Virus genome (UHGV): UHGV-0014568 | DNA length: 37,204 nt | Source of the DNA: a virus | Direction: 5' to 3' (one strand) | In this document: one piece after another, positions 9,439-32,026 of the stretch | Numbering within the stretch: the first letter of the stretch is position 1 | Layout: each line of letters opens with the position of its first letter | Program-made: the position numbers and the translations under genes | The notes under the pieces: generated by a model | The model's input: the letters and a program-made list of their open reading frames with translations, nothing else | Told to the model about the DNA's origin: nothing | Database searches by the model: none

Positions 9439-9731
9439 TCCTGTTCACTGGCCTCTTTGGCCATCTTCAAATACTGTTCAGGGCAATGCGCCATAACGCG
9501 CTGAAACAGTTCCAGCGCCAGATTGCGTTGCCCCTCATTAAATGCCATTGCCATAGCGTCCATCGGTGAGATAGCGGAAAACACACGGCCTTTCTCCAGC
9601 ACCGACCAGACAACGCGACGCCCCTGTTCACTGCTCATGACAAAGCGAATGTCATCAATTTCACGCTGCGCCATGTCACGTTGCTTACGGGCGTTTTCTT
9701 CTTTCAGTTGATCGTCTTCGTAATCTGTCAT
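9435..9731 (-). CDS. Small protein between portal and scaffold genes
   Basis: 98-aa ORF whose ends overlap the portal stop and scaffold start by 4 nt each, suggesting translational coupling. Confidence 0.4.
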   Translation of the reverse strand: MTDYEDDQLKEENARKQRDMAQREIDDIRFVMSSEQGRRVVWSVLEKGRVFSAISPMDAMAMAFNEGQRNLALELFQRVMAHCPEQYLKMAKEASEQE

Positions 9732-11407
9732 TGTGATTGCCCACCCTGACCACTAACTGCATTCGCCATAGCTGACAAAACACTCGGATCCGAAGTTTTA
9801 GCTTCGCTTAGCGTCTTGGCACCCTGTGCCGCCGCCATCCCCATCGCCATCATTTGTTGCTGCTGTTGCTGCTGTGCCCGTTGCTGGCGAGCCTGCTCAA
9901 CCTGTTCCTGCGGAACAATGACGGTTGGAGACACTCCGGACATATCAGCGAATGCATCGATCGCCTGATCAACGTTGAGTTTGTCGAGAGCTTCTGGTTT
10001 CGCTTGCGCAAGTTGACCAATGAAGTTAACCGTGGACGCCAGACTGGACAGGCCGATAGACTTCTGCGCCTGAGCCATGACGGAAATGTATTCGACCTTC
10101 AGGGGCATGCCTTCCATCGCGTCAGGCGGTGGCGGCAGCATGTTTTTACGCACCATCATCGAGAAAGCGCGGTAAATGAGAGGATTAAGACATTCGTCGT
10201 TCAGACGCTCAAGTACCGGCCCCAACATCAGAAGTTTTTCTTCTTTCATTTCGATCACCGCTTCAACAGGCATCGAGCGGGTATTGATGTTCTGCAACAT
10301 CATGAACAGATCGACAAAGTAGGCGCTGTTAATGATTTGACGAGTGTCCTGAATGTCTGCCACCAAATCTGCTGTACTGGGGTTAACCAGATAAGCAGGC
10401 CTGAAGCCATCCTGACCAGTAATCTGATCGATATACGTGATGTCGCCAGGAAGAAGGGAGGCGCGCTGATTCTTGAGGGAAGTCGGAGCAACCATCGGCG
10501 GATTGGTGGCTTTATCAATCAACTGCGACTTGCGCTTCTGGAGAAGCTGCAATGCCTTAACAGGTCCAAGCGCCAGCATACCCGGGCATGATGATCCATA
10601 AACATCTTCGCCGTTAACTTCCCAGCGCGGAGCCATAATTGGAAACTCATCAAATCCGGACTCACGCAACAACTTGTCGTTATCGCCACCAACCTCGTAA
10701 TAAACCGATTTGAATGGCTTGTTCTTGCTATCCAGCTTCGATGTATCGCGGTCAATGTTCGGGTAAACCGAATGCATCACTTCAATCCACTTCTCGTAGG
10801 TGCCGCTTTCCCACATGCTTTTTACGGATTCGCTGACGTTATTTAGCCCGAACTCCTGAACAAGCTGACGAACAGTCATAGAGAACTTGCGAAAACAGGT
10901 GTCCACACTGCCACGAGGTGAGTTAGCCAGGTAGTAACTGCCTATCGGGAATGGCATTGTGCGAATGATGTCCTCGTCATCCTCCAGTACTGCCATTGCA
11001 CCAGTGCTGTATGTGCCGAGGCTTCCGTATAACTGCGGCAGCGACTGATAGAGATTCGACTTATTGAACATATCGTTCATGCGGTTCTGCACCGCCTCAA
11101 GCCACAACTTAACAGGACCATAATCCATCATTTCAGGATCAGGCGTAGCCAGGCGAAACCACGGACGCGCGGGGCTTGTGATGCCAGACATCATGCCGCT
11201 GGCGAGAGTGCGCGCCGCCATAGTCCCGGTCGAATCAATAATGCGTGTATTGCGTCGATCGTTACGGTTGACCTCAGAAGTAAGAAAGCGGGAACCACGC
11301 GGGTTGATGTAATCACTCAACTCGCGCCAGTGCGGCTCGAACGACTGACGCTCGCTTTCAAGTTGTGCGAACTGTTTGTTCAATCGCTCTTTAGTTGTTT
11401 CCGCCAT
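9728..11407 (-). CDS. Portal (head-to-tail connector) protein, podovirus/T7 type
   Basis: 559-aa ORF; Gln-rich, Ala/Met-containing C-terminal tail (QQRAQQQQQQQMMAMGMAAAQGA) closely resembles the T7 gp8 C-terminus; lies just downstream of terL. Confidence 0.8.
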   Translation of the reverse strand: MAETTKERLNKQFAQLESERQSFEPHWRELSDYINPRGSRFLTSEVNRNDRRNTRIIDSTGTMAARTLASGMMSGITSPARPWFRLATPDPEMMDYGPVKLWLEAVQNRMNDMFNKSNLYQSLPQLYGSLGTYSTGAMAVLEDDEDIIRTMPFPIGSYYLANSPRGSVDTCFRKFSMTVRQLVQEFGLNNVSESVKSMWESGTYEKWIEVMHSVYPNIDRDTSKLDSKNKPFKSVYYEVGGDNDKLLRESGFDEFPIMAPRWEVNGEDVYGSSCPGMLALGPVKALQLLQKRKSQLIDKATNPPMVAPTSLKNQRASLLPGDITYIDQITGQDGFRPAYLVNPSTADLVADIQDTRQIINSAYFVDLFMMLQNINTRSMPVEAVIEMKEEKLLMLGPVLERLNDECLNPLIYRAFSMMVRKNMLPPPPDAMEGMPLKVEYISVMAQAQKSIGLSSLASTVNFIGQLAQAKPEALDKLNVDQAIDAFADMSGVSPTVIVPQEQVEQARQQRAQQQQQQQMMAMGMAAAQGAKTLSEAKTSDPSVLSAMANAVSGQGGQSQ

Positions 11408-11421
11408 TTCAATGACTCCGG

Positions 11422-11628
11422 TTACTGACCAAGCAGCGTTTTACCGCTGGTATTAGCGGTTGATGTGTCGCCCTGAGAACCGGTAAGCAGCGTAGAACTA
11501 CGACCAGCAGCAGCGCGACGGCGACGTGTTTCTTCGTCGCGGGCATCAACAACGGCAGCATCCTGCTCCTGTGGTGCTGCCTGAACTTCTGGTGTTGCAG
11601 GCACTGATGGTGAGCTACCCATGCACAT
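11422..11628 (-). CDS. Possible small acidic protein upstream of portal
   Basis: 68-aa ORF with a GGAG-type RBS; the same RBS context (CGGAGTCATTGA) precedes the portal start; overlaps another ORF frame, so uncertain. Confidence 0.2.
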   Translation of the reverse strand: MCMGSSPSVPATPEVQAAPQEQDAAVVDARDEETRRRRAAAGRSSTLLTGSQGDTSTANTSGKTLLGQ

Positions 11629-11696
11629 ATCAATGACTCCGTACGCAATTAAATTATTACCAATTTAACCACATATGATTTATTTATCGTAGATAG

Positions 11697-11733
11697 TTGA
11701 CATTTAACGCACGAATTATTACCTTTTAGGTAA
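11697..11733 (+). promoter_or_regulatory. Promoter-like region (TTGACA at 11697-11702) with TTACC-N5-GGTAA palindrome (11719-11733) upstream of the tRNA cassette
   Basis: Consensus -35 hexamer; no good -10 at canonical spacing; operator-like palindrome TTACCTTTTAGGTAA overlaps the expected -10/+1 region. Confidence 0.35.
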
Positions 11734-12055
11734 GCAAATGGTTCATTCCAGTTATTAACCTGACTGGCTTGTCGTTAAATTGAACAGGTGGAGTGAGCTT
11801 TTATTTTGAGCAGTACGGCGTATGGCACATGCGCCGATAGCGGTCTGGATACGTTTAAGGGGCACCCTCCCTTGCTCGGGCAAACGAACCAGGTAGCCGG
11901 AATGTGCAAGTCGAGCGGTTTTATTCCGCGCACGGGGATTCACCATCCCGGCGATTCGGTGTGACGCCTCGGAAGAGACGAGGATACAACGATGAGAGCA
12001 TTTCTGGAGCCGCGACAAAGTGTGGCGCCTTAACAGGCTAAGTGCTCTCAGCGTT

Positions 12056-12132
12056 GTGGCATTAGCTCAGTCGGACAGAGCAACCGCCTTCTAAGCGGTT
12101 GGTCGCAGGTTCGAATCCTGCATGCCACGCCA
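12056..12132 (+). tRNA. tRNA-Arg (anticodon UCU, reads AGA)
   Basis: Hand-folded cloverleaf: acceptor GTGGCAT/ATGCCAC, D-stem GCTC/GAGC, anticodon stem ACCGC/GCGGT with loop CTTCTAA (TCT at 12090-12092), T-arm GCAGG-TTCGAAT-CCTGC, discriminator G and encoded CCA. Confidence 0.85.
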
Positions 12133-12330
12133 GAATCACGCCTAAGGACCGTGATGCCAGAAGTTCCAGGTGCTTGGCGGTGATGGTTTCCCTTGAAGGA
12201 CTATCACCGCCCTTTTTACAGCAGGACGCCATTGCGATGACTTCATGCTGTAAACCAGTACAGCCACGGAAGGCATAACTCATTGCTTCCAGTTCGCCCG
12301 GTTCGCCGGGCATTTTTTTAAGGTGAGATT

Positions 12331-12687
12331 ATGAACGACCAGCAAATCGAAAAAGAAATCGTTGAGAAAGGCAAAACGGCACCGCGCGTTACGCCCCAAT
12401 ATATCGAAAGCATCATTCTTGAAGAGCATTTCTTTACTGCTTATGACGGTATTCGTGCCGCCAGTATGGGCGTTGGCGATACGTGGACAGCGCATAAATC
12501 TACAAACCTCCTTACTTTCTGCGTACTGGTGCTGAAGAATGGCTTCACCGTCACCGGAGAGAGCGCATGTGCAAGCCCGGAAAACTTTGATGCAGAAATT
12601 GGTCGGAAGATTGCCCGGCAGAATGCTGTAAACAAAATCTGGATGCTTGAAGGTTACTTGCTGAAGCAGAAGTTAAGCGAGCAATAA
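12331..12687 (+). CDS. Small moron protein, possibly phage Gp49/Sf6 gene-66-like family
   Basis: 118-aa ORF with AAGGTGAG RBS; opposite orientation to the flanking structural genes; family assignment is recollection of a conserved FFTAYDG...GDTW...NGFTVTGESAC pattern. Confidence 0.45.
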   Translation: MNDQQIEKEIVEKGKTAPRVTPQYIESIILEEHFFTAYDGIRAASMGVGDTWTAHKSTNLLTFCVLVLKNGFTVTGESACASPENFDAEIGRKIARQNAVNKIWMLEGYLLKQKLSEQ

Positions 12688-12691
12688 CACC

Positions 12692-12703
12692 GTGACATGT
12701 CAC
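12692..12703. repeat. 12-bp perfect palindrome GTGACATGTCAC (copy 1 of 3)
   Basis: Exact palindrome 5 nt after the stop of the plus-strand moron gene and just before its terminator. Confidence 0.8.
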
Positions 12704-12707
12704 AAAC

Positions 12708-12734
12708 AGCCAGCCTATGAGCTGGCTTTGTTTT
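12708..12734 (+). terminator. Rho-independent terminator for the tRNA/moron cassette
   Basis: 7-bp stem AGCCAGC/GCTGGCT with 6-nt loop followed by TTGTTTT. Confidence 0.6.
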
Positions 12735-12777
12735 ATCCTCACCAGAGGATATCAACGACATTATCCCCACCAGCGGA

Positions 12778-14253
12778 TTAAGCATAGGGATCGTAATCTG
12801 TAATGGCCTTGCCTTGCTGGTTCTGCTGACCTGGAATTCGCAGACGCTTCGACACAGGGAAAGCAAACGTCAGCAGTAGCGCATCGCCTTTACCCGGCGA
12901 ACGCCCAAGACGCTCTTTGATATCTTCCTTCGGTTCGATAACGATTTTACCGTCCACACGAACTTTGTACTCTGCCGCCGACAGGTCGTCTGCTGTTTCC
13001 TGGTCATCCAGTATGCCGCCCAGCCTCAGCCATGTCTTGCATGAATTGAACATCTCCCCACGCTTGTTGAGCATCTGCGGGTCAGTAGACGCGCCACCGA
13101 ACGGAACAAGTTGCCATGTACGACCCCATCCGTCACCGATTGACTTCAGACCGGTTCCGTAACCGAAGTCGATGAACACCGCGTCAGCCTGGTACTGGTC
13201 TTCAAAGTCAGCGATACGCTTCGCCATAATCAGATCGTCGGTGGTCTTGTTACCAGTCCATAGCACCTTACTGTGCAGCCCCTGCCGCAGGTATATCACC
13301 GCGTCATCAACGCCTGAGTATGCCGGGTCAACGCCGATTATCACCGGAGCATGTGCAACCTGCGCAGCGGTTACCACCCGTTTCATTGCCTCATCAGTAA
13401 GACCGGTAGGGATAAACTGCAATTCAGATGCATCAGGGAATATGCCGCGCACACGGATTTTAACGAAGTCGCTGTCTTCCCCGTAGTCATCAACCCATTT
13501 CTGCAACTGCTGTTTGTTAGTGCCTTCCACCGTCCGGCTGTCAATCTGCGCACACTTCCAGCGGTGTTTGTACTTGCGGAAACATTCACGGAAACGCCCG
13601 GTGTTACGCGTCGGGTTCCCGAACGCCACCCAGATGATTTCGGTGTCTTCGTCCGTCAGCGCACCCTCTGCTACCTCCCACACCAGATCGGCAATGTTCG
13701 ACGCTTCATCGAATACCACGATGATGCGTTTGCGCTCGTTGTGTAGTCCGGCGAATGCCTCAGTGTTGTGCTCAGACCAGGGGATTGCGTCAGCTCGCCA
13801 CCGCTTGTCGTGCCCAGGATCATTGCTGTACATCGCGGTAGCGGTACAGGTAAACCAGTCTTTCGTGATAGCAAGGTTCGACCACTTGATAATTTCCGGC
13901 CAGGTCTTCGTTCGTAGCTGGTTGTCGGTGTTGGCGGTCACCACGACCTTACAATCCTCGCAAGTGGACATGCCCCAGTTGATCAGCATTGAGATGAATG
14001 CGGATTTACCAATACCGTGACCAGAAGCGCGTGCCAGCATAAGCGGCTGATAGCGCGTCTCTGGATTCTGCAGGTGATCACGTATCTCTCGGAACGCATC
14101 AGCCTGCCACTGACGTGGGCCGGTGGCATGTGCCAGTTCAGTCCCCTCTTCCCCCCACGGGAACGCATAGAGGGCATAGCCAAGCGGATCGTGAGTGAAC
14201 CCTGCAATATCCTCGATCAACTGCTCTTCAGGAGATAACGCTGTATCTGTCAC
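12778..14253 (-). CDS. terL: Terminase large subunit
   Basis: 491-aa ORF; Walker A-like GHGIGKS near the N-terminus; overlaps terS by 4 nt; GTG start per ORF track. Confidence 0.85.
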   Translation of the reverse strand: MTDTALSPEEQLIEDIAGFTHDPLGYALYAFPWGEEGTELAHATGPRQWQADAFREIRDHLQNPETRYQPLMLARASGHGIGKSAFISMLINWGMSTCEDCKVVVTANTDNQLRTKTWPEIIKWSNLAITKDWFTCTATAMYSNDPGHDKRWRADAIPWSEHNTEAFAGLHNERKRIIVVFDEASNIADLVWEVAEGALTDEDTEIIWVAFGNPTRNTGRFRECFRKYKHRWKCAQIDSRTVEGTNKQQLQKWVDDYGEDSDFVKIRVRGIFPDASELQFIPTGLTDEAMKRVVTAAQVAHAPVIIGVDPAYSGVDDAVIYLRQGLHSKVLWTGNKTTDDLIMAKRIADFEDQYQADAVFIDFGYGTGLKSIGDGWGRTWQLVPFGGASTDPQMLNKRGEMFNSCKTWLRLGGILDDQETADDLSAAEYKVRVDGKIVIEPKEDIKERLGRSPGKGDALLLTFAFPVSKRLRIPGQQNQQGKAITDYDPYA

Positions 14254-18697: not shown

Positions 18698-18774
18698 TTA
18701 CCCCTAAGGTAATTAAAAACCACATAAGACACGAAATCAATAGATTTTAGAATATTTTATTACCTAACAGGTAA
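18698..18774. promoter_or_regulatory. Intergenic control region with two TTACC-N5-GGTAA palindromes
   Basis: TTACCCCTAAGGTAA (18698-18712) and TTACCTAACAGGTAA (18760-18774) flank an IHF-like AATCAATAGATTT and an AACCACATA motif, between the P-like gene and the nin-like genes. Confidence 0.5.
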
Positions 18775-20753: not shown

Positions 20754-20800
20754 TTACCTTTAAGGTGCGAATAGATATGAAAAGACCGCCGGATGGCGGC
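20754..20800 (-). promoter_or_regulatory. Region after the cro-like gene: operator-variant TTACCTTTAAGGTG plus GC hairpin (possible tR1-like terminator)
   Basis: 5-bp GC stem CCGCC/GGCGG followed on the minus strand by CTTTTC; also a copy of GAATAGATATGA. Confidence 0.3.
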
Positions 20801-20823
20801 CTACAGAGGGTTGTGGCTGGATA

Positions 20824-21054
20824 TCATGAGTAGAAGAAGTATGCCAGTTCTGCTTTTGAGCGCAGCCATTGTCTTGTTTTACAGGCTTTAAAAAGCCCAT
20901 TCATCAATACCTTACCTGGCATTTTGCGCTTACCTGTTAAGTGAGTCTGGATATAGTGACTCGTCGTTCCGGCTTCCTGTGCGAAGGCTTCACGCTCATC
21001 CGGAGTAAGTGCAAGCCAGTGCTTTTTGAAATCGAAATGTCCGTTATCGCTCAT
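20824..21054 (-). CDS. Cro-like small HTH regulator
   Basis: 76-aa ORF divergent from the repressor gene across an operator-rich gap; HTH-like segment LTPDEREAFAQEAGTTSHYIQTHLTGKR; first gene of the long minus-strand series. Confidence 0.5.
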   Translation of the reverse strand: MSDNGHFDFKKHWLALTPDEREAFAQEAGTTSHYIQTHLTGKRKMPGKVLMNGLFKACKTRQWLRSKAELAYFFYS

Positions 21055-21091
21055 AGCTATTGCCTGATATTTATTTCAGATAATAAATATT

Positions 21092-21185
21092 CACCCATAA
21101 GGTAACAAAAATCAAGGATAGTTACCTATGGGGTGCATTTACCTGTTGGGTAATATTGCTTTAAATTGAATCATCTACTGATTCA
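21092..21185. promoter_or_regulatory. OR-like divergent operator/promoter region
   Basis: Inverted pair CACCCATAAGGTAAC (21092-21106) and GTTACCTATGGGGTG (21121-21135), exact TTACCTGTTGGGTAA (21139-21153), and a separate perfect palindrome TGAATCA-N5-TGATTCA (21167-21185). Confidence 0.6.
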
Positions 21186-21208: not shown

Positions 21209-21793
21209 ATGAAAAGTATCCAGGACGTCCGCAGGCAAAATCTCAACGACTTGATCGACCGTGAATTCAATGGTGTTCAGACGCGGATGGCAGAAAAACT
21301 TGGAACTCAGGCAAATCTGGTAAACCGCTGGGCTCTTGGCAAGAAGGTTATCGGCGACCAGGTTGCGCGAAAAATTGAAGCTGCCGCCAATAAACCCCGT
21401 AACTGGCTTGATATCGATCGCTCGCTTTCTCAAGAAGGTTTTCAGCCTGTCGGACCAAGCGACATTGGTCAGCTGGCGGCTCACAACCTGGAACGCTGGA
21501 TGAGCGAAAGCCGAGACCTTTCAACGCAGGGAAAACTTCACCGCGCATCCGGCGTCGCCCAGGTGACAATCAGCCGCCTGTTAAACAATGAGGTCAGCGT
21601 TTCCATTTCCACCCTGGAGAATGTTGCATCCGCATTCGGGCGTCACGGCTATGAATTACTGATTCACCCGCACGACCCTGCGACTATCAACTATGATCGC
21701 TCGCGCTACGCATTGTTACCTGAAACAGAGAAGGCAAAGATCGAAAGTTACATTGAATTTGTCATCAACCAGAACGAAAAAAGCAAACAATAA
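21209..21793 (+). CDS. Prophage repressor candidate (CI position) with two XRE-type HTH domains and no peptidase domain
   Basis: 194-aa ORF between the OR-like and OL-like regions, with its own terminator; two HTH-like segments (QTRMAEKLGTQANLVNRW and GVAQVTISRLLNNE); no Ser/Lys S24 autopeptidase motifs seen. Confidence 0.5.
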   Translation: MKSIQDVRRQNLNDLIDREFNGVQTRMAEKLGTQANLVNRWALGKKVIGDQVARKIEAAANKPRNWLDIDRSLSQEGFQPVGPSDIGQLAAHNLERWMSESRDLSTQGKLHRASGVAQVTISRLLNNEVSVSISTLENVASAFGRHGYELLIHPHDPATINYDRSRYALLPETEKAKIESYIEFVINQNEKSKQ

Positions 21794-21850: not shown

Positions 21851-21927
21851 TTACCTTACGGGTAATTTTTTTAACTCATATCTATTGACAACAAACCAAA
21901 TACGCATAATTATTACCTAAACGGTAA
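21851..21927 (+). promoter_or_regulatory. OL/PL-like promoter with two TTACC-N5-GGTAA operators
   Basis: TTACCTTACGGGTAA (21851-21865), -35 TTGACA (21885-21890), CATAAT-like -10 region and TTACCTAAACGGTAA (21913-21927) just before the first gene of the plus-strand operon. Confidence 0.55.
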
Positions 21928-23219: not shown

Positions 23220-24157
23220 GCAACGACATCGCAAACATCAACGCACCAGTAGACACAGCAATCGCTGGAACTGCTGCAACTATTTTCAGCCCAGACGGCT
23301 TGAACCAACTGATGAAATTCGCCGAGGTAATGGCGCAAAGCCGCGTAACGGTACCGGCGCACCTCGCTGGGAAACCAGCTGATTGCATGGCCGTGGCAAT
23401 GCAGGCTGCGCAGTGGGGAATGAACCCGTTTGCCGTGGCTCAGAAAACCCATGTTGTGAACGGCACGCTAGGTTATGAAGCCCAATTAGTAAACGCAGTT
23501 ATCTCAACAATGTCGCCAACAAAAGATCGCATCAACTACGAGTGGTTCGGGCCGTGGGAACGCGTGATCGGTAAGTTTGTTGAGAAAACATCCAAAAACG
23601 GCAATCCGTATATCGCACCAGGCTGGACTCTAAAAGACGAAGAAGGTTGCGGTGTTCGCGTATGGGCAACCATGAAGGGCGAGGATCAACCTCGAGTGCT
23701 TGAGTTAATGCTGTCTCAAGCACAGGTAAGAAACTCCACACTTTGGGCCAGTGATCCGAAACAACAACTCGCATACCTTGCAACAAAACGCTGGTCTCGC
23801 TTGCACTGTCCTGACGTAATCATGGGCGTCTACACACCAGACGAATTACAGGAAACGGCACCGCGCGTTGAGCGAGACATTACTCCGCAAACGACCACTG
23901 CTGCGGGAATGAACAGTCTGATTAACGCTAAACAAGTGAAAAATCCTGATGAGCAAACGCGTAAAGCGGATAGCCGTGATCCAGAAGAAATGCTAATGGC
24001 CTTTACCAGCGCAGCGATGAATTACAGCACTGTCTCCGAACTGGATAAAGCTTACAAATACATTGCACAAAAACTTTCAGATGATGACGAACTGCTGGCA
24101 AAAGCCACCGACGTTTACAGCGTTCGTCGGGAAGAATTAAACGAAACATCTATGTAA
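23216..24157 (+). CDS. recT: RecT-family single-strand annealing protein
   Basis: ATG at 23216 overlaps the exonuclease stop (ATATGA) with an AGGA RBS; about 313 aa; the longer track ORF (23189) is an in-frame extension. Confidence 0.55.
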   Translation: MSNDIANINAPVDTAIAGTAATIFSPDGLNQLMKFAEVMAQSRVTVPAHLAGKPADCMAVAMQAAQWGMNPFAVAQKTHVVNGTLGYEAQLVNAVISTMSPTKDRINYEWFGPWERVIGKFVEKTSKNGNPYIAPGWTLKDEEGCGVRVWATMKGEDQPRVLELMLSQAQVRNSTLWASDPKQQLAYLATKRWSRLHCPDVIMGVYTPDELQETAPRVERDITPQTTTAAGMNSLINAKQVKNPDEQTRKADSRDPEEMLMAFTSAAMNYSTVSELDKAYKYIAQKLSDDDELLAKATDVYSVRREELNETSM

Positions 24158-24206
24158 CCACCACCGCGGCGCCACACGCGCCGCACTGCAACCAAGAGAG
24201 GTATTT

Positions 24207-24455
24207 ATGAAAGGTGCATTAGGTAAGAAGGAACTCCTGGCGGTGGTGCCACTGTCATGGAGCACTATCGACCGTATGGAGCGCGCAGGGGAATTTCCTA
24301 AACGCTGGTATATCACCGATAAACGCTGCGCATGGAACCGCGATGAAGTTGAGCGTTGGCTTGATGAACGTCAGGCAGCAAGCCCGGCAGAGTTCCAGGG
24401 TAAAAAACCTCCTGTTCAGCAACGTGTATATCGTCCTGTGAGCAACGCGGCATGA
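24207..24455 (+). CDS. AlpA-family small DNA-binding protein (regulator or excisionase candidate)
   Basis: 82-aa ORF with strong RBS; LLAVVPLSWSTIDRMERAGEFPKRWYI...W...EVERWL matches the AlpA/Xis pattern from memory. Confidence 0.5.
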   Translation: MKGALGKKELLAVVPLSWSTIDRMERAGEFPKRWYITDKRCAWNRDEVERWLDERQAASPAEFQGKKPPVQQRVYRPVSNAA

Positions 24456-24564
24456 GTGTGCTGCTAAGGCACTGGAGCAAATGGTCAGGATGGTACTTAT
24501 TCCTGGCCTCTGTTTCAGCATGGCTTTATCTGCTGGCATTAATTTTCAGAGAGGGTTGGATTAA

Positions 24565-24864
24565 GTGAGAAAGTTAAGCCGACTTGAAAAATATCACATG
24601 AACAAGGTTTCAATGCGCAGCCATTCAAAGGTTGTTGCCGTTACTCCTGCGGCGATAGAGATCGAAAAACGCGCGATTGAAAGAGAGAAAAAAGGGCAGT
24701 TCCGCATTGCCGCTCACCTTTGGCTTCAGTGTATGGATGTTGCTTCTGGTGATGTTGAGCGTGCAAGGATCGCGGTTCGCAGGGACCAATGTATCACAAA
24801 AGGTAACGGCCTTCGCCGTGGCGACTATAGCGGCATAGGATGTTGTGGGGTGGTTTATGACTAA
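24565..24864 (+). CDS. Small regulator-like protein, possibly PerC-family
   Basis: 99-aa ORF (GTG start with GAGGG RBS); family call from recollection of a G.FRIAAHLWL...RR.QC pattern; weak. Confidence 0.3.
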   Translation: MRKLSRLEKYHMNKVSMRSHSKVVAVTPAAIEIEKRAIEREKKGQFRIAAHLWLQCMDVASGDVERARIAVRRDQCITKGNGLRRGDYSGIGCCGVVYD

Positions 24865-25507
24865 GAAATACACACTAATCTATGCAGATCCACCCTGGGT
24901 ATACCGGGACAAAGCCGCAGATGGTAATCGCGGTGCCGGTTTTAAATATCCGGTTATGAGTGTGCTGGATATCTGCCGCCTTCCTGTGTGGTGTTTGGCC
25001 GATGAAAACTGTCTGTTGGCCATGTGGTGGGTGCCAACACAACCACTCGAAGCACTAAAAGTTGTTGAAGCCTGGGGATTCCGTCTGATGACCATGAAGG
25101 GATTCACGTGGATAAAATGTGGTAGTCGACAACCAGATAAACTGGTTATGGGTATGGGTCACATGACTCGCGCCAATAGTGAAGATTGCCTGTTTGCAGT
25201 AAAGGGAAAACTACCTCCGCGCATTAATGCAGGGATCGTTCAGTCATTTACCGCACCGCGGCTTGAGCATTCAAGAAAACCAGATGTCGTTCGTGAAAAA
25301 CTTGTGCAATTGTTAGGCGATGTTTCTCGCATTGAACTGTTCGCCCGCCAGTCGTCTCATGGCTTCGATGTTTGGGGTAATCAGTGCGAAGACCCGGCAG
25401 TGCAACTACACCCTGGATACGCGTTGGATATTGCCAGATTAACAAATGCATTCAGCAATGCTCCGCTGTCACCAACAGACAACCAGGGGCGGGAGCGTGC
25501 AGCATGA
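24857..25507 (+). CDS. MT-A70-family DNA N6-adenine methyltransferase
   Basis: About 216 aa from ATG 24857 with GGGGTGG RBS; catalytic DPPW motif in YADPPWVY near the N-terminus. Confidence 0.7.
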   Translation: MTKKYTLIYADPPWVYRDKAADGNRGAGFKYPVMSVLDICRLPVWCLADENCLLAMWWVPTQPLEALKVVEAWGFRLMTMKGFTWIKCGSRQPDKLVMGMGHMTRANSEDCLFAVKGKLPPRINAGIVQSFTAPRLEHSRKPDVVREKLVQLLGDVSRIELFARQSSHGFDVWGNQCEDPAVQLHPGYALDIARLTNAFSNAPLSPTDNQGRERAA

Positions 25508-25698
25508 ACCGGGCATCACCAGCAGATTTAAGGAAATGCCTTGAAACTGCAAACATGCTTGCACACAGCGGGATCAGGTTTGTTCCAATTCCCGCTGTCA
25601 CTGATGCTGAATTTGCAACACTGTCAGCAATATTCGCAGATAAAATTGAATCACTGGCAGCAGAAGCCGAGATGGAAGAAAATCAGCAGAATAATTAA
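25504..25698 (+). CDS. Small protein, possibly DUF1382-like
   Basis: 64 aa from ATG 25504 overlapping the methyltransferase stop (ATGA); the track's 104-aa version starts inside the upstream gene. Confidence 0.3.
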   Translation: MNRASPADLRKCLETANMLAHSGIRFVPIPAVTDAEFATLSAIFADKIESLAAEAEMEENQQNN

Positions 25699-25701
25699 AC
25701 G

Positions 25702-26952
25702 TTATTCCCCCGCCATCCACTTCTCAAACTTCGACGGGGAGAACGGAATCAGATCCGTATGCTCCCCGTTAATCCAGGAATCAATCATATCGGCCCACTG
25801 CTGCAACATGTAGGCGCGCTGTCTGGCATATTCCGCTTTGTTATATACGGCGCGCACACCTTTCTGCTCATGTGCCAGAGCCTTTTCAATCCAGTCTGAA
25901 GGATAACCAGCCTCATGCAACAACGTACTGGCTGTACGGCGCATATCATGTACAGTGAAGTCCTGAATATGCTCACCATCTTCATTTATTATTTTCACCG
26001 TTCTGTCGATCAGAGAGTTCAGCGCGGCATTAGATAATGGCTTCCGGAAGTTGTAACGACCAGGAACCAGATATTCACTTCCACCAGCGCACATCTGCAA
26101 CCCGACCAATATATCCTGTGCCTGTTTAGGCAGGTAAATAACGTGCGCCCGGCTTCCCTTCATGCGGTCTGAAGGAATTGTCCATGTCCATTTTTTAAAA
26201 TCTATTTCGTCCCACGTTGCATTGGTGAATTCGCCTTTACGAACCATAGTGATAAGCACCAGTTTTAAAGCCATTTTCATAGTGCCCATAGCACCAATGG
26301 CATCCAACGTGCGGAAGAACAGGCCAATTTCTTCTGGTGTCAGTGTTCGCTCTCGTGGTTTAAATATGGCGATAGACGAAGGCTTAATGTCAGCCGCAGG
26401 ATTAAACAAACCATGACCACGGTCATTGGCGTGACGGTATACGCTGCTGATGATCTCCCTGGCCTGCACTGCTGTTGCCCGGCCACCGCGTTCGACAATC
26501 CGGTCACACAAATCACGAACCATCGATGTGGTAATTTCAGCCATCATTTTGTTGCCAAGAACCGGAAGTATGTCACGGTCGATCACTGCCTGCTTCATTG
26601 CGCGGGTACTTTCAGCCATGATGACGTGTTTCATATAACTGTCGGTATGTACCGCAAACGTCTCGGCACCACGAATCTTTTTGATACCGTCACGTTTAGC
26701 CGCAGCCGGCGACTGGCCTGCTTTAAGCAGCTTCTTTGCAGCAATCAGTTCTTCCCGCGCTTCTGCCAGGCTTATACCGTCACGCCCATACTGCCCGATT
26801 ACCAGTGTTTCGCGGCGACCGTTGATACGGTAGTCATAGCGAAACGAGACCGTACCTGACGTAAGCACAGCTACATACAGCCCGTCACGATCGGAGACTT
26901 TGTACAGTTTGTCCTGCGGCTTGAGGTTTTTCAATTTTGTATCGGTAAGCAC
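25702..26952 (-). CDS. int: Tyrosine integrase, P4-like family
   Basis: 416-aa ORF; N-terminus LTDTKLKNLKPQDKLYKVSDRDGLYV typical of P4-type integrases; C-terminal catalytic region with HDMRRT and Y-containing tail; GTG start. Confidence 0.85.
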   Translation of the reverse strand: MLTDTKLKNLKPQDKLYKVSDRDGLYVAVLTSGTVSFRYDYRINGRRETLVIGQYGRDGISLAEAREELIAAKKLLKAGQSPAAAKRDGIKKIRGAETFAVHTDSYMKHVIMAESTRAMKQAVIDRDILPVLGNKMMAEITTSMVRDLCDRIVERGGRATAVQAREIISSVYRHANDRGHGLFNPAADIKPSSIAIFKPRERTLTPEEIGLFFRTLDAIGAMGTMKMALKLVLITMVRKGEFTNATWDEIDFKKWTWTIPSDRMKGSRAHVIYLPKQAQDILVGLQMCAGGSEYLVPGRYNFRKPLSNAALNSLIDRTVKIINEDGEHIQDFTVHDMRRTASTLLHEAGYPSDWIEKALAHEQKGVRAVYNKAEYARQRAYMLQQWADMIDSWINGEHTDLIPFSPSKFEKWMAGE

Positions 26953-27269
26953 AATTCACCCGTATAGAAACCATTTTCATGACGGTATGAGAGTATACCT
27001 TTCGGGTAATACCGTCACCTATACCGTCGAAAAATGTGGTGTAGAGTGAATAGATATGAGTAGATATAAACAAAAACCCTCTGCAATTACAGAGGGTTAG
27101 GGAAGACATTGAATAGATATGATGTGCTATGAACTAGCTATACATCATTCCCACTCAATTATTTACGAAAGCCATAACCAATTGAGTGATAACATTTTTC
27201 CAAAACCTCATTTTTTTAGTACCGTTTTATATACCGTCACCGGAAATCAGTACCATGAAAAATGCCATG
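26953..27269. other. Candidate attP region with arm-type repeats
   Basis: TACCGTC core four times (26981-26987 inverted, 27010-27016, 27022-28, 27232-27238), (T)GAATAGATATGA twice (27048-27059, 27111-27122), in the gap between int and Rz. Confidence 0.35.
27064..27098 (-). terminator. Rho-independent terminator ending the lysis/late transcript
   Basis: 9-bp perfect stem AACCCTCTG/CAGAGGGTT with 6-nt loop, followed on the minus strand by TTTTTGTTTAT. Confidence 0.65.
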
Positions 27270-27752
27270 CTATCTTGTCAGGGTGTCATACTGTTTTTCG
27301 CAGACTCTTCCGGCTTCGGCTGCCCGGTCAGCATACTCTGCCAGTTGTCTGTTTCTCTCGAGAGATTTGCTGAGCACGTCGGCAAGCAAAACTCCGGTGT
27401 CTGCGGCTGACGTCCCAGCGCCGACAATGGCGTTATACTGCCTGAGCTGCTCACGGATGGCAAAGAGTTGTTGCTGCAACCTGCCAGCGCGAACGGCAGC
27501 ATCAAGAGCATCATTGCGCGCCTGGTCGATCCTCTGCTGAGCTTCACGTTCATTGGTCGCTTTCTCCCGTTCGTACTGCTTACGAATTCTCTCATCTTCA
27601 GCTTTGCGGTCTTCCTTAGCCTGCGCATACCCGGCGTCGTACTGACGACTGCCGTGTGCATTCCAGGCTACAACTCCTGATATTACCAGAACAGCAAGCA
27701 TCACCATGATAACCAACTGTTTCCAGTATGCTTTTGCGAATGCCCAGATCAT
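27270..27752 (-). CDS. Rz-like inner-membrane spanin
   Basis: 160-aa ORF overlapping the endolysin stop; N-terminal TM ([18 protein letters not shown]) then charged coiled-coil region. Confidence 0.6.
27278..27514 (-). CDS. Rz1-like outer-membrane lipoprotein spanin embedded in the +1 frame of Rz
   Basis: Signal peptide with lipobox ([13 protein letters not shown]), Pro-rich mature part; wholly inside the Rz gene. Confidence 0.5.
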   Translation of the reverse strand: MMLLMLPFALAGCSNNSLPSVSSSGSITPLSALGRQPQTPEFCLPTCSANLSRETDNWQSMLTGQPKPEESAKNSMTP

Positions 27753-28378
27753 ACCGCCAGCACCTTACTGGCAGTGATGTACCGCGCGCGCCGGTCGTCG
27801 ATGCCGTTCCGGCCACCATTGATAATCAGAGTTACACGTGCAATATCGCCGGTATACTTCATGCAACCTTTGCTGGAGAAGAACCACGCCGCGCTACGAG
27901 CCGCGTATTCGTCCTGCGCCAGCAGTTCAGGATTCTCCAGCAAGTCCACTTTCAAGCCGTTTCCGCAGTCACGATAGTTATTCAAACCGGTAATCTGGAT
28001 AAGTCCGCGACCTCGGTAATTCCAGCCATCACCAGGGGCATTGTTCCCCATGCGTTTGCTGTACACCAGATTGGCGATCGCTCTCTGGCGCTCAAGTGGC
28101 AACAGCGGTTCGCCTACGCGTCGCCCCAATGCGTTAGCCTGTCCCTGGGTGAGACGCCCAGCCCGAACGAAGTTAGCCAGTCCGGTGACGCTGTAGTTGA
28201 AATTTTCCTGCAACCGGGTGAAGCCCACAGACTCATGCCCGACCTGAGCAATAAACATTGCCTGATCTTCGGGTTTGCTTATTCCAAACTCTTTCATCGC
28301 TGAAGTTATATGCGAGAACCAGCGTGCAGCCAGTGCCTCGCTAATACCAGCAGCTCGCTGGAATTGTTTAATCTCCAT
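27749..28378 (-). CDS. Endolysin, glycoside hydrolase family 19-like
   Basis: 209-aa ORF with GAGG RBS; [16 protein letters not shown] motif typical of GH19-type lysins; no N-terminal signal-anchor. Confidence 0.7.
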
Positions 28379-28676
28379 ATTTAGACCTCGTTATTTTGAA
28401 AATCTGAACGACGTTACCGCGCGTTTTAATAACCGCAGCAAGCATGACAGCGTTGATAATGACCTCAGATAAATCCACAACCATTGGCGTGCGTAACCAG
28501 ATTGCATAAACAACACGAACAGGGATACTGGCCGCTGCAACAATCAGGAAATAAGCAAGCCACCCACCCCATCTCCTGTGTTGAGAACCGTTTCTCCGAA
28601 ATGTGGCAACTCGAACTGCTATACCGGCGCAAATAGCCGCATTGGTGATAAGCAAAAAAAGCTCATGAGTTACCAT
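28368..28676 (-). CDS. Holin (three predicted TM segments)
   Basis: 102-aa ORF immediately upstream of and overlapping the endolysin; three hydrophobic stretches; GGAG RBS. Confidence 0.5.
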
Positions 28677-29067
28677 CGTCTTTTCTCCCCGGAATTAACT
28701 CGCGTGGATTATCGGAACGGTGATAGAGCCAGATTCCAATTCGCACTGCGACGATTGCTGACACAAATGCACCGGCAGAGAAAACAATCCCTTTCTCGAA
28801 AGAATCCTGTGTGATTGTAGGGATCAGGCTGGCTATGCCGATAAGAATTGATGCTGCTGGTTTGTAGAATAGAAGTCCGCATAGAAAGCTAAGCATCGAC
28901 AAAAGCACGCGACGACGAATTGGATACTCTACCGCAGAGGTAACAAAAATTACCGCCCCAGACAAAGACCCCAAAGCAACCTCAGGAGGAACACCGGCCA
29001 CAACCGCAATAAAAGAACTAACACTAAGCCACTGATTTAAAGACTCACTTGTTAGTTGAACTGACAT
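28663..29067 (-). CDS. Multi-pass membrane protein of the lysis cassette (second holin or antiholin candidate)
   Basis: 133 aa from ATG 29067 with GGTGG RBS (track's longer ORF starts at 29157); several hydrophobic segments; overlaps the holin start. Confidence 0.4.
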   Translation of the reverse strand: MSVQLTSESLNQWLSVSSFIAVVAGVPPEVALGSLSGAVIFVTSAVEYPIRRRVLLSMLSFLCGLLFYKPAASILIGIASLIPTITQDSFEKGIVFSAGAFVSAIVAVRIGIWLYHRSDNPRELIPGRKDDGNS

Positions 29068-29168
29068 AAAAACCACCGTTTCATGTGCATGAAGAACCCA
29101 CTTATTTGTGAGTTCATCATACACAATAAACCATATGTGGTTAAACCATAAAGACAACTATCTTGTCT

Positions 29169-31907
29169 TTATTGGATAATATGGAACGAATTTTTAACAT
29201 GAATAGTAGCAGAATTATTACTATTATTAATTAAAGCGATCTTCCCGCCAGAATATCCGGGAACAGCCTGTTGAACAGTTCCGCCAGTAGTGGGTTTAAC
29301 TGTTATTGTAGGTACTGACCCTGCCAGGCCAGCTGTAAGCTTGACCTCACCTGTCACATCGCAAGTCAATGTGCCGACAACAGTAAGAGCGCCGAAAAGC
29401 ATTGTTGAAATCTCAATTCCAGTTGAAGTTCTCTTTGCAACAACTCCGCTTTGTGAAGTAGGTTTATAGTAAAAAATCACTCCACAGCCAACAGGAATTG
29501 ATGATAAAGCAACGTTTTGAACATTTGGTGATTTAGTTGCACCATACATATCAGGAGATTCATCATTAGCAGTTTCTGCCGCATACGACAATAACAAATC
29601 AGCTCTATCCCTTACCTGCCCATATACTCCTTTTATTGCATTTTCAGCAAGATACACTGAAGCGCTTTGCGAGCATGACTCTTTCAAATCTCCTCTAAAC
29701 AACAGCCCTGGTGGATATACTTTTGATGGCGTACCATCGTAAATAATCTCAATCTGATTAAGTCCTTTTTTAAGGGTTCCAAGGTGAGTGGTTAGTTTGT
29801 TTGTAAACGATGAGACGCCATTACTAGCGATATTACCAGAACTAAATGCTGTATTACGGATATCTTGTTGTCGGATAGAGATGGAGTTAGCGCGACCGTT
29901 TGCAACATATGTTGGGTTATACGGCTCAAAAACAACCAATGATATATCAGAAGTTTCACACCAGACAAAATATCGTATGGTTAAATTTTCAGTAGCTGGG
30001 TAAACCACGCCCCAGCCAGTTAGACCATTTAGATACGTGTCTCCACTCAACCGCTCCATACCAACGCTGTACGTGCTACCAGACGGGAAGCCAAATGGCT
30101 GGATATCATTATCAACTGTTGGTACGAAGTTATTCCCTTTTTTCGCAGTGTGGACTCTATACGGCATAACAGCCTTTGCTGCATATGCGCCGATATATTG
30201 ATGGCCCAGAGGAGCAAAATGCGTGCTATCAAAAGTGCCATCTGTCGGGCGCCGAGCAATATCTTCAAGCGTATAGCTTCCGAGGTCTCTGTACATCTCG
30301 GTTACTGGCTGAGAGAGATCGAGGAACTCTACCGCAGGGAACAGGCGTTCAATATGCTTCTTAATTGATGCTTCGAGAGCCGCCCATTGTGAGCCATTCT
30401 GGTTCATTGAAACAACGCAGACGGCACATCCGTAACCCCATGCTTTACGGATAAACTGCTCAAAACGGAATAAATACTGATCGAACCCTAACGTATCAAG
30501 TTGTCCGTTATCGTTAACGCCCATGGATATGAAGCAAACGTCTGGCGGCACGTTTCCGTATGCAGTGTTTTTGAAGAAGCCATGGTCAAAGTTACGATTC
30601 GCCCACCCGTCAATGAGTCGCTTTCCAGAAGATGCGCAGTTTTCAGCCTTAAATATGTAAGCACTATTTTTAGTAAATCGGTTAAGCCAGTCGGTAAATG
30701 TGCGAAACCAAGAACCTGAACCACCATTACTATTGTGATCGTAGTTAGTTGAAGATAGGTCACCATTAGAATCGGTTGGATTAGCTGACCATCCAGCACC
30801 GTATGCGCCGTCAGTGATTGAATCACCAACGATACCAACACGACATAGCGTATTGCGGCGAGCGAACTGGTTTATTACGTTGAATGCAGTGTATTTACTG
30901 CCATGAGTTGCCAATCCAACATCAAATATGTGCTCATTCCCCCATGGATCTCTGGTGAGAATTTTTCCTTCACCGATAAATTTTGTCACATCATCATCTG
31001 GCAGGAAATTGCAGCGTAGCTGAACATCCTTCGGAACATAAATTTGTCCAGTATAAGCGTATACTGCAGCGCGGTTATCTGTCTCGCTATCAATGACTAC
31101 CCCAGGAACATATTTCACGGCTAATGCATCATTGCGATATTTACCGTTGCTTAGCTCTGTCCTTAATACAGCATCACCTACACCTATCCATGCCCCTGGA
31201 CCAACACCACCAGTAGTGGTAGGAGTTGATCCAGGCGGAACTACTTTGGGCAGTGGCCCATCCCATCTGTAGTATTCGCCGTTGCTTTCCCAGAGAAGAA
31301 CATCGTTAAGATAGATGATGGTATTACCCAACTCAAAAGATTTCTTCGTGTTATAGCCATACAATCCATTTTCTAAGGTTTCAATAATGGTGCTAAGTAT
31401 GGTACTAAATTTTGCATAAAGATCATCAGTATATTTTTTTGTAGCAGCATCTTGGGGAAGAGATGGATCACGAAGATTTCTAATATAATTTGAAAGCGCG
31501 TCATAAAAAATTGCTACGTCATTTGGCTTTCTTAAAGCCAACTTATCATTTCTTAATGATTGTTGAATGAGCATAGTAAGTTTATCAAACGCATCCTCAT
31601 GTACCTCAGCGAAGAACTTACCCTGATTACGTAAATCCGTTTCCTGAGTAGCTGGTAGTTCTCGTGATATAGATATCTGATGACCGTTAGCCAACGCCTT
31701 CGAGAGAATTACATTACCGCCGTTGTACCCTCCCGCTCCGGTGACGATGTAATCTGTATCAAGAACCAGTACGTTTATATTCTCGCTAATGTCAACAACC
31801 TGTACTACCAGATCTGATTTTTTGAAGATCCTAAATTTGTAAGGGAATGTCGTCGTAACACCATTGCCAGTGTATTCGTTGTGGTTAACTTCGGTTGAGA
31901 CCGTCAT
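29169..31907 (-). CDS. Tailspike/tail fibre with T7-type N-terminal attachment domain and SGNH (GDSL) esterase domain
   Basis: About 912 aa from ATG 31907 with GGAGA RBS (track ORF starts at 31949); N-terminus VNHNEYTGNGVTTTFPYKF resembles podovirus fibre N-terminal domains; SGNH blocks GDSITDG (Ser codon at 30819-30821), GVNDNG and DSTHF. Confidence 0.7.
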   Translation of the reverse strand: MTVSTEVNHNEYTGNGVTTTFPYKFRIFKKSDLVVQVVDISENINVLVLDTDYIVTGAGGYNGGNVILSKALANGHQISISRELPATQETDLRNQGKFFAEVHEDAFDKLTMLIQQSLRNDKLALRKPNDVAIFYDALSNYIRNLRDPSLPQDAATKKYTDDLYAKFSTILSTIIETLENGLYGYNTKKSFELGNTIIYLNDVLLWESNGEYYRWDGPLPKVVPPGSTPTTTGGVGPGAWIGVGDAVLRTELSNGKYRNDALAVKYVPGVVIDSETDNRAAVYAYTGQIYVPKDVQLRCNFLPDDDVTKFIGEGKILTRDPWGNEHIFDVGLATHGSKYTAFNVINQFARRNTLCRVGIVGDSITDGAYGAGWSANPTDSNGDLSSTNYDHNSNGGSGSWFRTFTDWLNRFTKNSAYIFKAENCASSGKRLIDGWANRNFDHGFFKNTAYGNVPPDVCFISMGVNDNGQLDTLGFDQYLFRFEQFIRKAWGYGCAVCVVSMNQNGSQWAALEASIKKHIERLFPAVEFLDLSQPVTEMYRDLGSYTLEDIARRPTDGTFDSTHFAPLGHQYIGAYAAKAVMPYRVHTAKKGNNFVPTVDNDIQPFGFPSGSTYSVGMERLSGDTYLNGLTGWGVVYPATENLTIRYFVWCETSDISLVVFEPYNPTYVANGRANSISIRQQDIRNTAFSSGNIASNGVSSFTNKLTTHLGTLKKGLNQIEIIYDGTPSKVYPPGLLFRGDLKESCSQSASVYLAENAIKGVYGQVRDRADLLLSYAAETANDESPDMYGATKSPNVQNVALSSIPVGCGVIFYYKPTSQSGVVAKRTSTGIEISTMLFGALTVVGTLTCDVTGEVKLTAGLAGSVPTITVKPTTGGTVQQAVPGYSGGKIALINNSNNSATIHVKNSFHIIQ

Positions 31908-31961
31908 GTTAAATCTCCAGATAGTCGCAGCACCCGTTGCGCCGCACATCCGGTCATTCTA

Positions 31962-32026
31962 TTACCTGAAAAACCACATATGGATAGATAACCCATAAAT
32001 ACGAACAGATATCACCTTTCAGGTAA
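31962..32026. promoter_or_regulatory. Long-range inverted repeat TTACCTGAAA ... TTTCAGGTAA with AACCACATATG motif between tailspike and the LexA-box gene
   Basis: Half-sites at 31962-31971 and 32017-32026 are exact reverse complements, 45 bp apart; AACCACATATG at 31972-31982. Confidence 0.4.

Follow-up and report, generated by a model that had tools for sequence, protein, structure and literature searches.

The put RNAs of phage HK022 are ~70 nucleotides (nt) in length and carry two stem-loops, and one of them, putL, sits directly behind the PL promoter and is protein-independent (PMC9378689). GOLLD and ROOL are complex RNAs that often reside in prophages beside tRNA genes, with which they possibly are co-transcribed (PMC5737381). 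Herein we describe an RNA element in UHGV virus genome UHGV-0014568, a stretch of 37,204 nt that is referred to below as the window. On the plus strand of the window, positions 11812-11985 encode an RNA from a conserved family that is characterized by a pseudoknot and a length of ~170 nt (174 nt in this copy). This RNA lies in a plus-strand cassette together with a promoter, a tRNA gene, terminators, and a small open reading frame (ORF). The family resembles put and Bacillus EAR RNAs, GOLLD and ROOL, and tRNA-linked RNAs by context, and not by sequence or fold. It may well be more distinct than a variant of any of these.

As is true for put, the element is a phage RNA located right behind a repressor-controlled early promoter, ahead of terminators and early genes. 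The phages concerned are likewise temperate phages of enterobacteria, and no N-type protein is annotated at this place in the lambdoid records that were read in detail. However, the 174-nt pseudoknotted core, the long hairpin P6 that follows it, a tRNA slot, and a further hairpin are unlike put. Further hallmarks of put are factor-independent read-through of terminators and binding to the β′ zinc-binding domain. A covariance model of the family (R1) has no match in positions 24000-32000 of HK022, and no motifs are shared. With GOLLD and ROOL the element has in common its prophage location and the adjacent tRNA genes (51 of 159 loci). In contrast, GOLLD and ROOL average >500 nt and have been described in other bacterial groups, whereas the element is smaller (a 174-nt core in a ~480-nt unit) and was found in Enterobacterales only. 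The Rfam models for GOLLD and ROOL gave no match at positions 11600-12800 of the window (E values up to 10) or at 12 related loci (gathering threshold).

Two other systems invite comparison. In the eukaryotic MALAT1-mascRNA system, and in tRNA-linked bacterial transcripts, a structured RNA abuts a tRNA or tRNA-like domain. The phage element shares this arrangement, and cleavage by RNase P would likewise set its 3′ end. It contrasts with the eukaryotic example in that its processing is a predicted one and in that the tRNA of the phage P1 locus lies upstream instead. The element also is similar to lambda nutL and N in that it heads the leftward early operon, just past the cI repressor gene, and the loop GAAGAGA of its stem P5 is reminiscent of the lambda boxB loop, GAAGA. 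Unlike nutL and N, however, it has no N gene annotated with it, and it is also present in P1 and in Uetakeviruses.

The core is supported by BLAST matches, covariation, and a covariance model. It begins with stem P1 (11816-11823 with 11829-11836), which is followed by P2, whose base (11844-11847 with 11890-11893) encloses a variable interior. A near-invariant 19-mer, GGTAGCCGGAATGTGCAAG (11892-11910), then leads into the closing stem (11910-11912 with 11950-11952), which encloses P3 and P4 (11935-11938 with 11946-11949). The P4 loop CACC (11941-11944) forms a pseudoknot with GGTG (11958-11961), and P5 (11967-11971 with 11979-11983) completes the fold. All of these elements are on the plus strand.

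The structure was evaluated with an alignment of 41 diverse copies (A1), in which near-invariant blocks are separated by variable hairpins. For the tested structure (P1, P2, closing stem, P4, pseudoknot, P5, and a candidate contact between the P1 loop and part of the 19-mer), standard base pairs are present in 96.4% of 1435 cells, and double-sided changes are found at 14 pairs (117 cells). None of 500 shuffles matches these data on any of five measures, and only 28%–45% of cells are paired when the partners are slid by 1–3 columns. The pseudoknot CACC/GGTG is replaced by AACC/GGTT in five of the 41 sequences. The candidate contact of the P1 loop is invariant in A1, which neither supports nor contradicts it. 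Many G-U pairs are seen when the plus strand is read, for example U-G at pair 10:20 (39/41) and pair 33:91 (41/41) and G-U at pair 7:23 (19/41). Read from the opposite strand, they would become A-C mismatches, which identifies the plus strand as functional.

As a check on ascertainment bias, 120 metagenome copies were retrieved with another anchor (the P1 hairpin plus AGCGGTC). Of these copies, 105 have the exact 19-mer and 12 others carry at most two mismatches in it, and an artifact of retrieval was rejected as the cause of its invariance. Among the 68 distinct sequences of this second set (A3), whose alignment was fitted to the covariance model and therefore is somewhat biased in favor of the structure, 93.0% of cells are paired and double changes occur at 14 pairs (229 cells). 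Again no shuffle among 500 equals the data on four of the five measures; the remaining measure, further pair types, is reached by 29 of 500, and slid partners are paired in 31%–45% of cells. The P2 interior aligns badly (54%–79% paired), and therefore we make no claim about the detailed fold of P2.

Model R1 scores the window copy, which is the only one in the window, at 140.8 bits and the phage P1 copy at 131 bits. A cmscan search of positions 11600-12800 against Rfam 15 with E values up to 10 returned only the tRNA, plus chance matches far under their gathering scores. Besides tRNA, no Rfam 15 match was found in phage cdtI 2440-2960 (E values up to 10) or at 12 related loci (gathering threshold), and permissive thresholds applied to three representatives gave no family for the core.

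This RNA is widespread. A sensitive BLAST search with positions 11690-12055 as the query gave matches of ~240 nt (11815-12055) with 80%–82% identity in lambdoid phages, namely cdtI, mEp460, 2H10, Ayreon, twelve Stx2c phages, and Stx2a_1447. A match of ~165 nt is present in P1, P7, and other P1-like phages, and shorter core matches occur in phages of Klebsiella, Enterobacter, and Salmonella. Across unrelated phage families, core identity is 70%–82%. BLAST matches to the core were found in 1835 of 5426 complete E. coli genomes (about one third), and no annotated feature overlaps the core among the E. coli matches listed. A match is also carried by 591 plasmid records, mostly P1-like. Exact-word scans with GGTAGCCGGAATGTGCAAG yielded 24 loci from genomes and at least 120 from IMG/VR. 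Enterobacterales account for 22 of the 24 genome loci; of the other two, one is a chance match and one is a metagenome-assembled bin. The annotated contexts that were looked at are phages or prophages. The P1 copy is full-length and is located between tRNA-Ile and ban, and many lambdoid prophages carry a full-length copy directly downstream of the CI repressor gene.

A structured RNA is annotated at this place in none of the records inspected. Searches of the literature by sequence, phage name, and topic gave no description of it, although an earlier unnamed listing is possible among the 8495 unnamed candidate phage RNAs of a 2023 catalog (PMC10690425).

Next to the core, in the window and in the majority of lambdoid copies, comes the long hairpin P6 (11987-12056, plus strand), in which the arm CAACGATGAGAGCA (11987-12000) pairs with TGCTCTCAGCGTTG (12043-12056) around a variable interior. 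Among 24 distinct arm pairs, compensatory changes are evident, such as GAGAGCA/TGCTCTC, AAGAGCA/TGCTCTT, GAGAGCGCA/TGCGCTC, and AAAAGGCG/CGCCGTTT; this register was read by hand from the list of arms. A 13-codon leader peptide with an AGA codon (ATG AGA GCA ... at 11992) was considered here and rejected. Its ATG lies inside the P6 stem, its frame is not maintained among copies, and in many of them AGGTAAG is found instead.

The conserved sequence at the end of P6, CGTTGTGGT, doubles as the 5′ strand of a stem that resembles a tRNA acceptor. This stem is closed by ACCACAA 62–293 nt downstream in ~30–40 of 58 representatives (TTGTGGT/ACCACAA), with C-CCA next in many of them, and one copy has the compensating pair GTTGTGA/TCACAAC. 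A hairpin, GCCGG-AGATCAGCA-CCGGC, often precedes the closure. We refer to the region between as the tRNA slot. In the window it holds tRNA-Arg(UCU) with an encoded CCA (12056-12132, plus strand). This tRNA, which had been predicted earlier, is real: both ARAGORN and Rfam recognize it (anticodon TCT; RF00005, 73.3 bits against a gathering score of 29, E value of 2e-14). Twenty-nine other loci among the 159 have the same tRNA in the slot, and two loci (L018 and L038) have another predicted tRNA. The slot of enteropathogenic E. coli (EPEC) E2348/69 (L162 2734-2846) contains a tRNA-derived domain, to which the Rfam tRNA model gives 35.8 bits. Its acceptor, D, and T arms and the CCA are intact, but its anticodon arm is interrupted by 41 inserted nt, and RefSeq labels it a pseudogenic tRNA-Gly. 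The slot domain of Tyrion has no tRNA likeness that is recognizable by Rfam. In the P1-type copies (19 loci) the order is reversed, with the first stem of the core ~25 nt past the CCA of tRNA-Ile(CAU), and both P6 and the slot are absent. Overall, a same-strand tRNA is directly adjacent to the element at 51 of 159 loci, and the remaining 108 are without a true tRNA.

Core, P6, tRNA slot, and a conserved hairpin travel together among unrelated phage types. The Uetakevirus tRNA-Arg is one occupant of a general tRNA slot, and is not the reason for the cassette to exist. The original prediction had likened this tRNA for a rare codon to the tRNA cargo of Stx phages, an analogy that adds nothing, and the sole exchangeable cargo is the small ORF. 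A codon count, of the kind that it had proposed as a check, gives 7.4 AGA per 1000 codons in the ORFs of the window. E. coli uses AGA at ~2 per 1000 codons, and the value for the window is several-fold higher. AGA codons are missing from the head genes and are frequent in the tail/injection and replication genes. A codon-supply rationale for the tRNA is reasonable because AGA is frequent in the window and is concentrated in these tail/injection and replication genes.

Transcription of the cassette is predicted to begin at a sigma-70-type promoter on the plus strand (11697-11725), with the −35 hexamer TTGACA (11697-11702), a 17-nt spacer, and the −10 hexamer TACCTT (11720-11725). An operator-type palindrome, TTACCTTTTAGGTAA (11719-11733), spans the −10 hexamer and the start site, which is predicted to be near 11732. 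Both had been placed correctly by the original prediction. A consensus scan reported no promoter at 11697-11725 because the −10 hexamer matches at only three of six positions. The layout TTGACA-17-TACCTT is nevertheless kept in the Uetakevirus-type copies, and in 38 of 57 representatives a TTGAC[AC]-17(±1)-TAnnnT promoter is located 6–145 nt upstream of P1. In six representatives the −10 hexamer ends 6–12 nt before P1, and therefore their RNA would begin at the core.

The palindrome TTACCTTTTAGGTAA, with up to two mismatches, occurs 17 times in the window versus 0.73 expected, and none of 100 shuffles reaches 17. Pairs of sites are clustered on both sides (21091-21153 and 21851-21927) of a helix-turn-helix (HTH) repressor gene at 21209-21793. 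The promoter directly downstream of this gene has the same AATTATTACCT-N4-GGTAA layout, and the homologous site in the epsilon15 record is annotated as a repressor binding site. These sites, including that at 11719-11733, outline a putative regulon of the phage repressor or of another regulator. TTACCT-N3-AGGTAA copies are also present at 18698-18774, at 20754-20944, and at the distant location 32012-32026, and some of them fall inside the replication-gene region.

A similar arrangement is seen elsewhere. The order in cdtI is cI, a terminator, a TTGACA-16-CATAAT promoter, the element, a strong terminator, and the first early-left gene, and a scan found no promoter between the strong terminator and that gene. 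This pL-type promoter is ~50 nt upstream of P1, and its palindromes, judged by eye, resemble those between cI and cro. A repressor with HTH and Peptidase_S24 domains is encoded by the upstream same-strand gene in 17 of 31 other contexts. The copy in phage P1 belongs to an operon headed by the C1-controlled ban promoters and operator, and no terminator follows this copy before ban. The common denominator of these contexts appears to be early transcription under direct control of the master repressor.

The cassette had originally been regarded as a moron. It does have its own promoter and terminators and is inserted between genes of another operon. The expression independent of the repressor that the term implies is contradicted by the immunity-type operator, as judged from sequence. 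Because the −10 hexamer and the start are covered by an operator of the immunity region, and the epsilon15 site is annotated as "repressor," the cassette looks like an early, repressor-controlled unit, and not like a lysogen-expressed moron.

The explanation that we favor, with a probability of about 40%, is that the RNA is the product of a discrete early RNA gene, is released by tRNA processing, and acts in trans. The unit would be silent in the lysogen and would be transcribed at once upon induction or infection. This timing is proposed because the P1 copy is in the C1-controlled ban operon and the lambdoid copies are downstream of the CI gene. The primary transcript would be ~480 nt, extending from ~11732 to ~12217. 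RNase P would cut at the 5′ end of the tRNA (G12056), the 3′ end of the tRNA presumably would be trimmed, and a mature AGA-decoding tRNA would result. The same cut would free the leader, core, and P6 (~320 nt) as a discrete early RNA that is expected to be stable. In the most speculative step, this RNA would have a trans-acting effect on some host component that is conserved in Enterobacterales. Many near-invariant unpaired bases, in addition to the pseudoknot, would be expected of an RNA that binds a protein or enters a higher-order assembly, and these bases suggest that the released RNA may have a partner. GOLLD and ROOL provide a precedent for ornate RNAs of prophages that adjoin tRNAs (PMC5737381). 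Some transcripts would read through two terminators, and the exchangeable 118-amino acid (aa) cargo gene thereby would be expressed.

Several observations weigh against this explanation. Lambdoid prophages have a strong hairpin and U-tract between the element and the early-left genes, and in cdtI, the only case scanned, no promoter was detected after this hairpin. Such an arrangement reads more naturally as regulated termination or antitermination, and a terminator that heads an early operon would be odd for a bystander RNA gene. Read-through transcripts appear to matter because the sequence past the terminator also is conserved. Because epsilon15 is viable without the core, the tRNA, and terminator 1, the RNA is dispensable in the laboratory. 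Finally, the 108 loci that lack a true tRNA, and some slot domains that are not tRNA-like to Rfam, also count against this explanation.

The main rival, which likewise fits most of the observations and which we regard as somewhat less probable, is that the element is a cis-acting processive antiterminator analogous to HK022 put or Bacillus EAR. Once folded, the nascent core would bind the E. coli RNA polymerase that is transcribing it and would render this enzyme resistant to downstream terminators of the hairpin/U-tract type. The 118-aa ORF of the window, and the early-left operon of lambdoid phages, then would be expressed only from this promoter. This possibility accounts well for the position of the element at the head of early transcripts, directly past the CI gene in lambdoid prophages. 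Those lambdoid records that were read in detail show no annotated N-like gene in the interval from cI to the first early gene. In both cdtI and the window, the promoter, element, strong terminator, and co-directional genes follow one another with no promoter detected between them. Nearly all non-P1 copies precede a terminator-type hairpin past which conservation extends, and all copies with an identified genus come from Enterobacterales, which would fit the polymerase of one host. However, homology to put is lacking, as R1 finds nothing in the HK022 early region, and each phage record inspected has one copy of the element, versus putL and putR in HK022. In Uetakeviruses an antiterminator would serve one small exchangeable gene that is far less conserved than the element itself, and epsilon15 has lost the core yet has kept the cargo and terminator 2. 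P1 has no terminator before ban, and the tRNA slot would be left unexplained. An antiterminator and the discrete trans-acting RNA that we favor could both be partly true.

A second alternative is far less probable. As the leader of a riboswitch, or of an attenuator responsive to a protein or tRNA, the element would recognize a small molecule, protein, or RNA by means of its core and would gate early-operon expression through the downstream hairpin. A conserved core with variable peripheral stems, near-invariant unpaired bases, and a varying 3′ region are indeed typical of riboswitches, and a terminator-type hairpin does lie downstream. However, this terminator is 100–500 nt past the core, with the tRNA or other domains between, which leaves no simple alternative pairing. 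One long-range helix, in which the 5′ arm of P1 pairs with a sequence preceding the terminator, appeared in the minimum-free-energy fold of cdtI and was rejected since it is confined to the cdtI subtype. In addition, P1 copies have no terminator, and no link was seen with any metabolic gene class.

The view of the original prediction, that this region is a long noncoding leader of a tRNA-plus-moron cassette, can be given almost no credence. The region is indeed positioned between promoter and tRNA, and the predicted span from the start to the tRNA (~322 nt) agrees with the 320 nt that had been proposed. A passive spacer would not be expected to maintain 70%–82% identity and compensatory changes across unrelated phage families, nor to occur without any tRNA at 108 of 159 loci. 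What had been called a leader is a separate and widespread structured RNA. A protein-coding gene or a DNA-level site is similarly implausible, despite the ORFs annotated over the core in mEp460 and BUCT709 (minus strand) and in Tyrion (plus strand), since any 19-mer-anchored frame, on either strand, is open in 17 of 41 copies at most, the length of the core (154–185 nt) varies by non-multiples of three, and the G-U pairs are compatible only with the plus strand. These ORFs are spurious, and the annotations of several records are thereby corrected.

The function of this RNA probably bears on how temperate phages begin lytic growth, be it through transcription control, host takeover, or counter-defense. 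More tentatively, and at somewhat longer odds than the reading we favor, the core may be a new class of phage RNA machine in the phage-host systems that have been studied best (E. coli, P1, and lambdoid prophages). It could be a protein-independent reprogrammer of host RNA polymerase at early operons, with an architecture unrelated to that of put, or an RNA that self-assembles or captures a host factor and is fused to a tRNA module. If this is true, a new RNA machine would act within the first minutes after loss of the repressor. P1, lambdoid prophages, and phiV10 are among the best-annotated phages, yet the RNA is unannotated among the matches listed. In lambdoid prophages without an annotated N at this place, the element would be the first sequence transcribed from a pL-type promoter, and in P1 it is under C1 control together with the ban operon. 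The RNA is short, its covariation is clear, and its hosts are tractable, and both leading hypotheses therefore are directly testable.

The phage of the window is phiV10/epsilon15-like (Uetakevirus, the epsilon15-like temperate podoviruses), and positions 11600-12800 are 97%–98% identical to phiV10, O157 typing phages 9 and 10, TL-2011b, and further Uetakeviruses. As had been recognized, the plus-strand cassette is located amid minus-strand packaging and head genes. On one side is terL (12778-14253, minus strand), and on the other are a 68-aa ORF (11422-11628, minus strand; PHROG 831, epsilon15 gp3) and the portal gene (9728-11407, minus strand). The 68-aa product is a conserved Uetakevirus protein that is rich in Ala, Gln, and Arg. 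The same locus between the large terminase gene and the 68-aa and portal genes is occupied in Uetakevirus records by a tRNA-Arg together with a gene that resembles Sf6 gene 66. In GenBank, the tRNA-Arg is annotated for O157 typing phages 9 and 10 as well as for SPN9TCW, and the gene-66-like ORF is annotated in phiV10. The cassette, tRNA, and ORF are therefore already known, and the cassette is partly annotated in relatives. Its absence from close relatives, which had been named as a reason for doubt, is not observed, as phiV10, O157 typing phages 9 and 10, TL-2011b, ZX5, and others all carry it.

Downstream from the tRNA, a linker hairpin, ATCACG-CCTAAGGAC-CGTGAT (12135-12155, plus strand), includes the k-mers AGGACCGTG and ATCACGCCT, which are kept in 23 and 17 of 58 representative loci, respectively. 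Two terminator-like hairpins that the original prediction did not list (terminators 1 and 2) then lie between the tRNA and the ORF. Terminator 1 (12176-12217, plus strand) consists of a hairpin, GGCGGTGATGG...CTATCACCGCC (12176-12211), and a short U-tract, CTTTTT. It belongs to a family with the pattern GGCGGT-NNNN-loop-NNNN-ACCGCC-TTTT(T)ACA that is present after the element in most non-P1 copies. The seven basal pairs are 100% paired in 21 variants, with two to six pair types at positions 5–7, and the sequence past the hairpin is conserved inside each phage group. The loops of P2 (11862-11870) and terminator 1 (12188-12197) both display a UCCCUUG(A/C)-like motif. Such motif pairs also occur in relatives; for example, TTCCCTTGATGCT is in both SPN9TCW loops. 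The common motif may reflect a ligand that both loops bind or a contact between loop and receptor.

A noncoding segment with the hairpin ACAGCA...TGCTGT (12218-12295, plus strand) separates the two terminators and is kept in Uetakeviruses, including epsilon15. Terminator 2 (12296-12319, plus strand) is composed of the hairpin GCCCGGTTCGCCGGGC (12296-12311) and ATTTTTTT, with seven T residues, and ends 12 nt before the start codon. It is maintained in relatives (k-mers GGGCATTTT and GCATTTTTT) and is annotated as a rho-independent terminator in epsilon15. Together, these ~100 nt (12218-12319) are conserved across Uetakeviruses and are retained in epsilon15 despite its loss of the core and tRNA. 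From its sequence, this segment resembles either a small RNA or a leader that regulates the cargo ORF. A RyhB-type Rfam match to it was rejected as weak, at chance level, and reflecting the terminator only.

The cargo region (12320-12687, plus strand) comprises a ribosome binding site (RBS), AAGGTGAG, and the 118-aa ORF (12331-12687). A profile search with this ORF, as the original prediction had advised, assigns it to Pfam PF13876, Phage_gp49_66 (117.6 bits with a cut-off of 27, E value of 3.5e-34). This is the N4 Gp49/Sf6 gene 66 family, PHROG 322, which is labeled "unknown function." In SPN9TCW, PAT1, and Tyrion, other ORFs have been substituted for it. The cassette is closed by terminator 3 (12708-12734, plus strand), the terminator that had been proposed from the outset, with the hairpin AGCCAGCCTATGAGCTGGCT (12708-12727) and TTGTTTT. 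The phiV10 counterpart is annotated as a terminator on the opposite strand, and terminator 3 possibly also stops opposite-strand terL transcripts.

Some relatives carry rearranged forms of the element. Owing to a deletion, epsilon15 (L161 1503-1578) lacks P6, the tRNA, terminator 1, and the greater part of the core. It retains P1 and the beginning of P2, along with terminator 2 and the cargo ORF. The epsilon15 record has an "RNaseIII" site just upstream of the core remnant that touches only the first P1 bases. At another locus (L118 3330-4070), an opposite-strand gene for a 152-aa membrane protein, with its own terminator, is located between the core and the terminator hairpin. This insert, at which leader sequence is duplicated, is a true moron within the element. 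A boxA-like sequence, GCTCTTTAACAA, directly 3′ of the core in three copies was rejected as a candidate signal, as it is part of the terminator region of the inserted opposite-strand moron. In cdtI (L008 277-465, minus strand), Rfam detects a C4 antisense RNA (68 bits) and isrK (60 bits) beside an antirepressor-type gene, which suggests that this lambdoid phage may carry a P1-like immI module.

The 5′ leader of the transcript (11734-11811, plus strand) contains a hairpin (11748-11767), followed by GTCGTTAAAT (11771-11780) and GGTGGAGTGAGC (11787-11798). The combined motif GTCGTTAAAT-N6-GGTGGAGTGAGC (11771-11798) recurs among the representative loci (22 of 58), where its position varies. Elsewhere it resides within P6 inserts or, in mEp390-type prophages, past the terminator.

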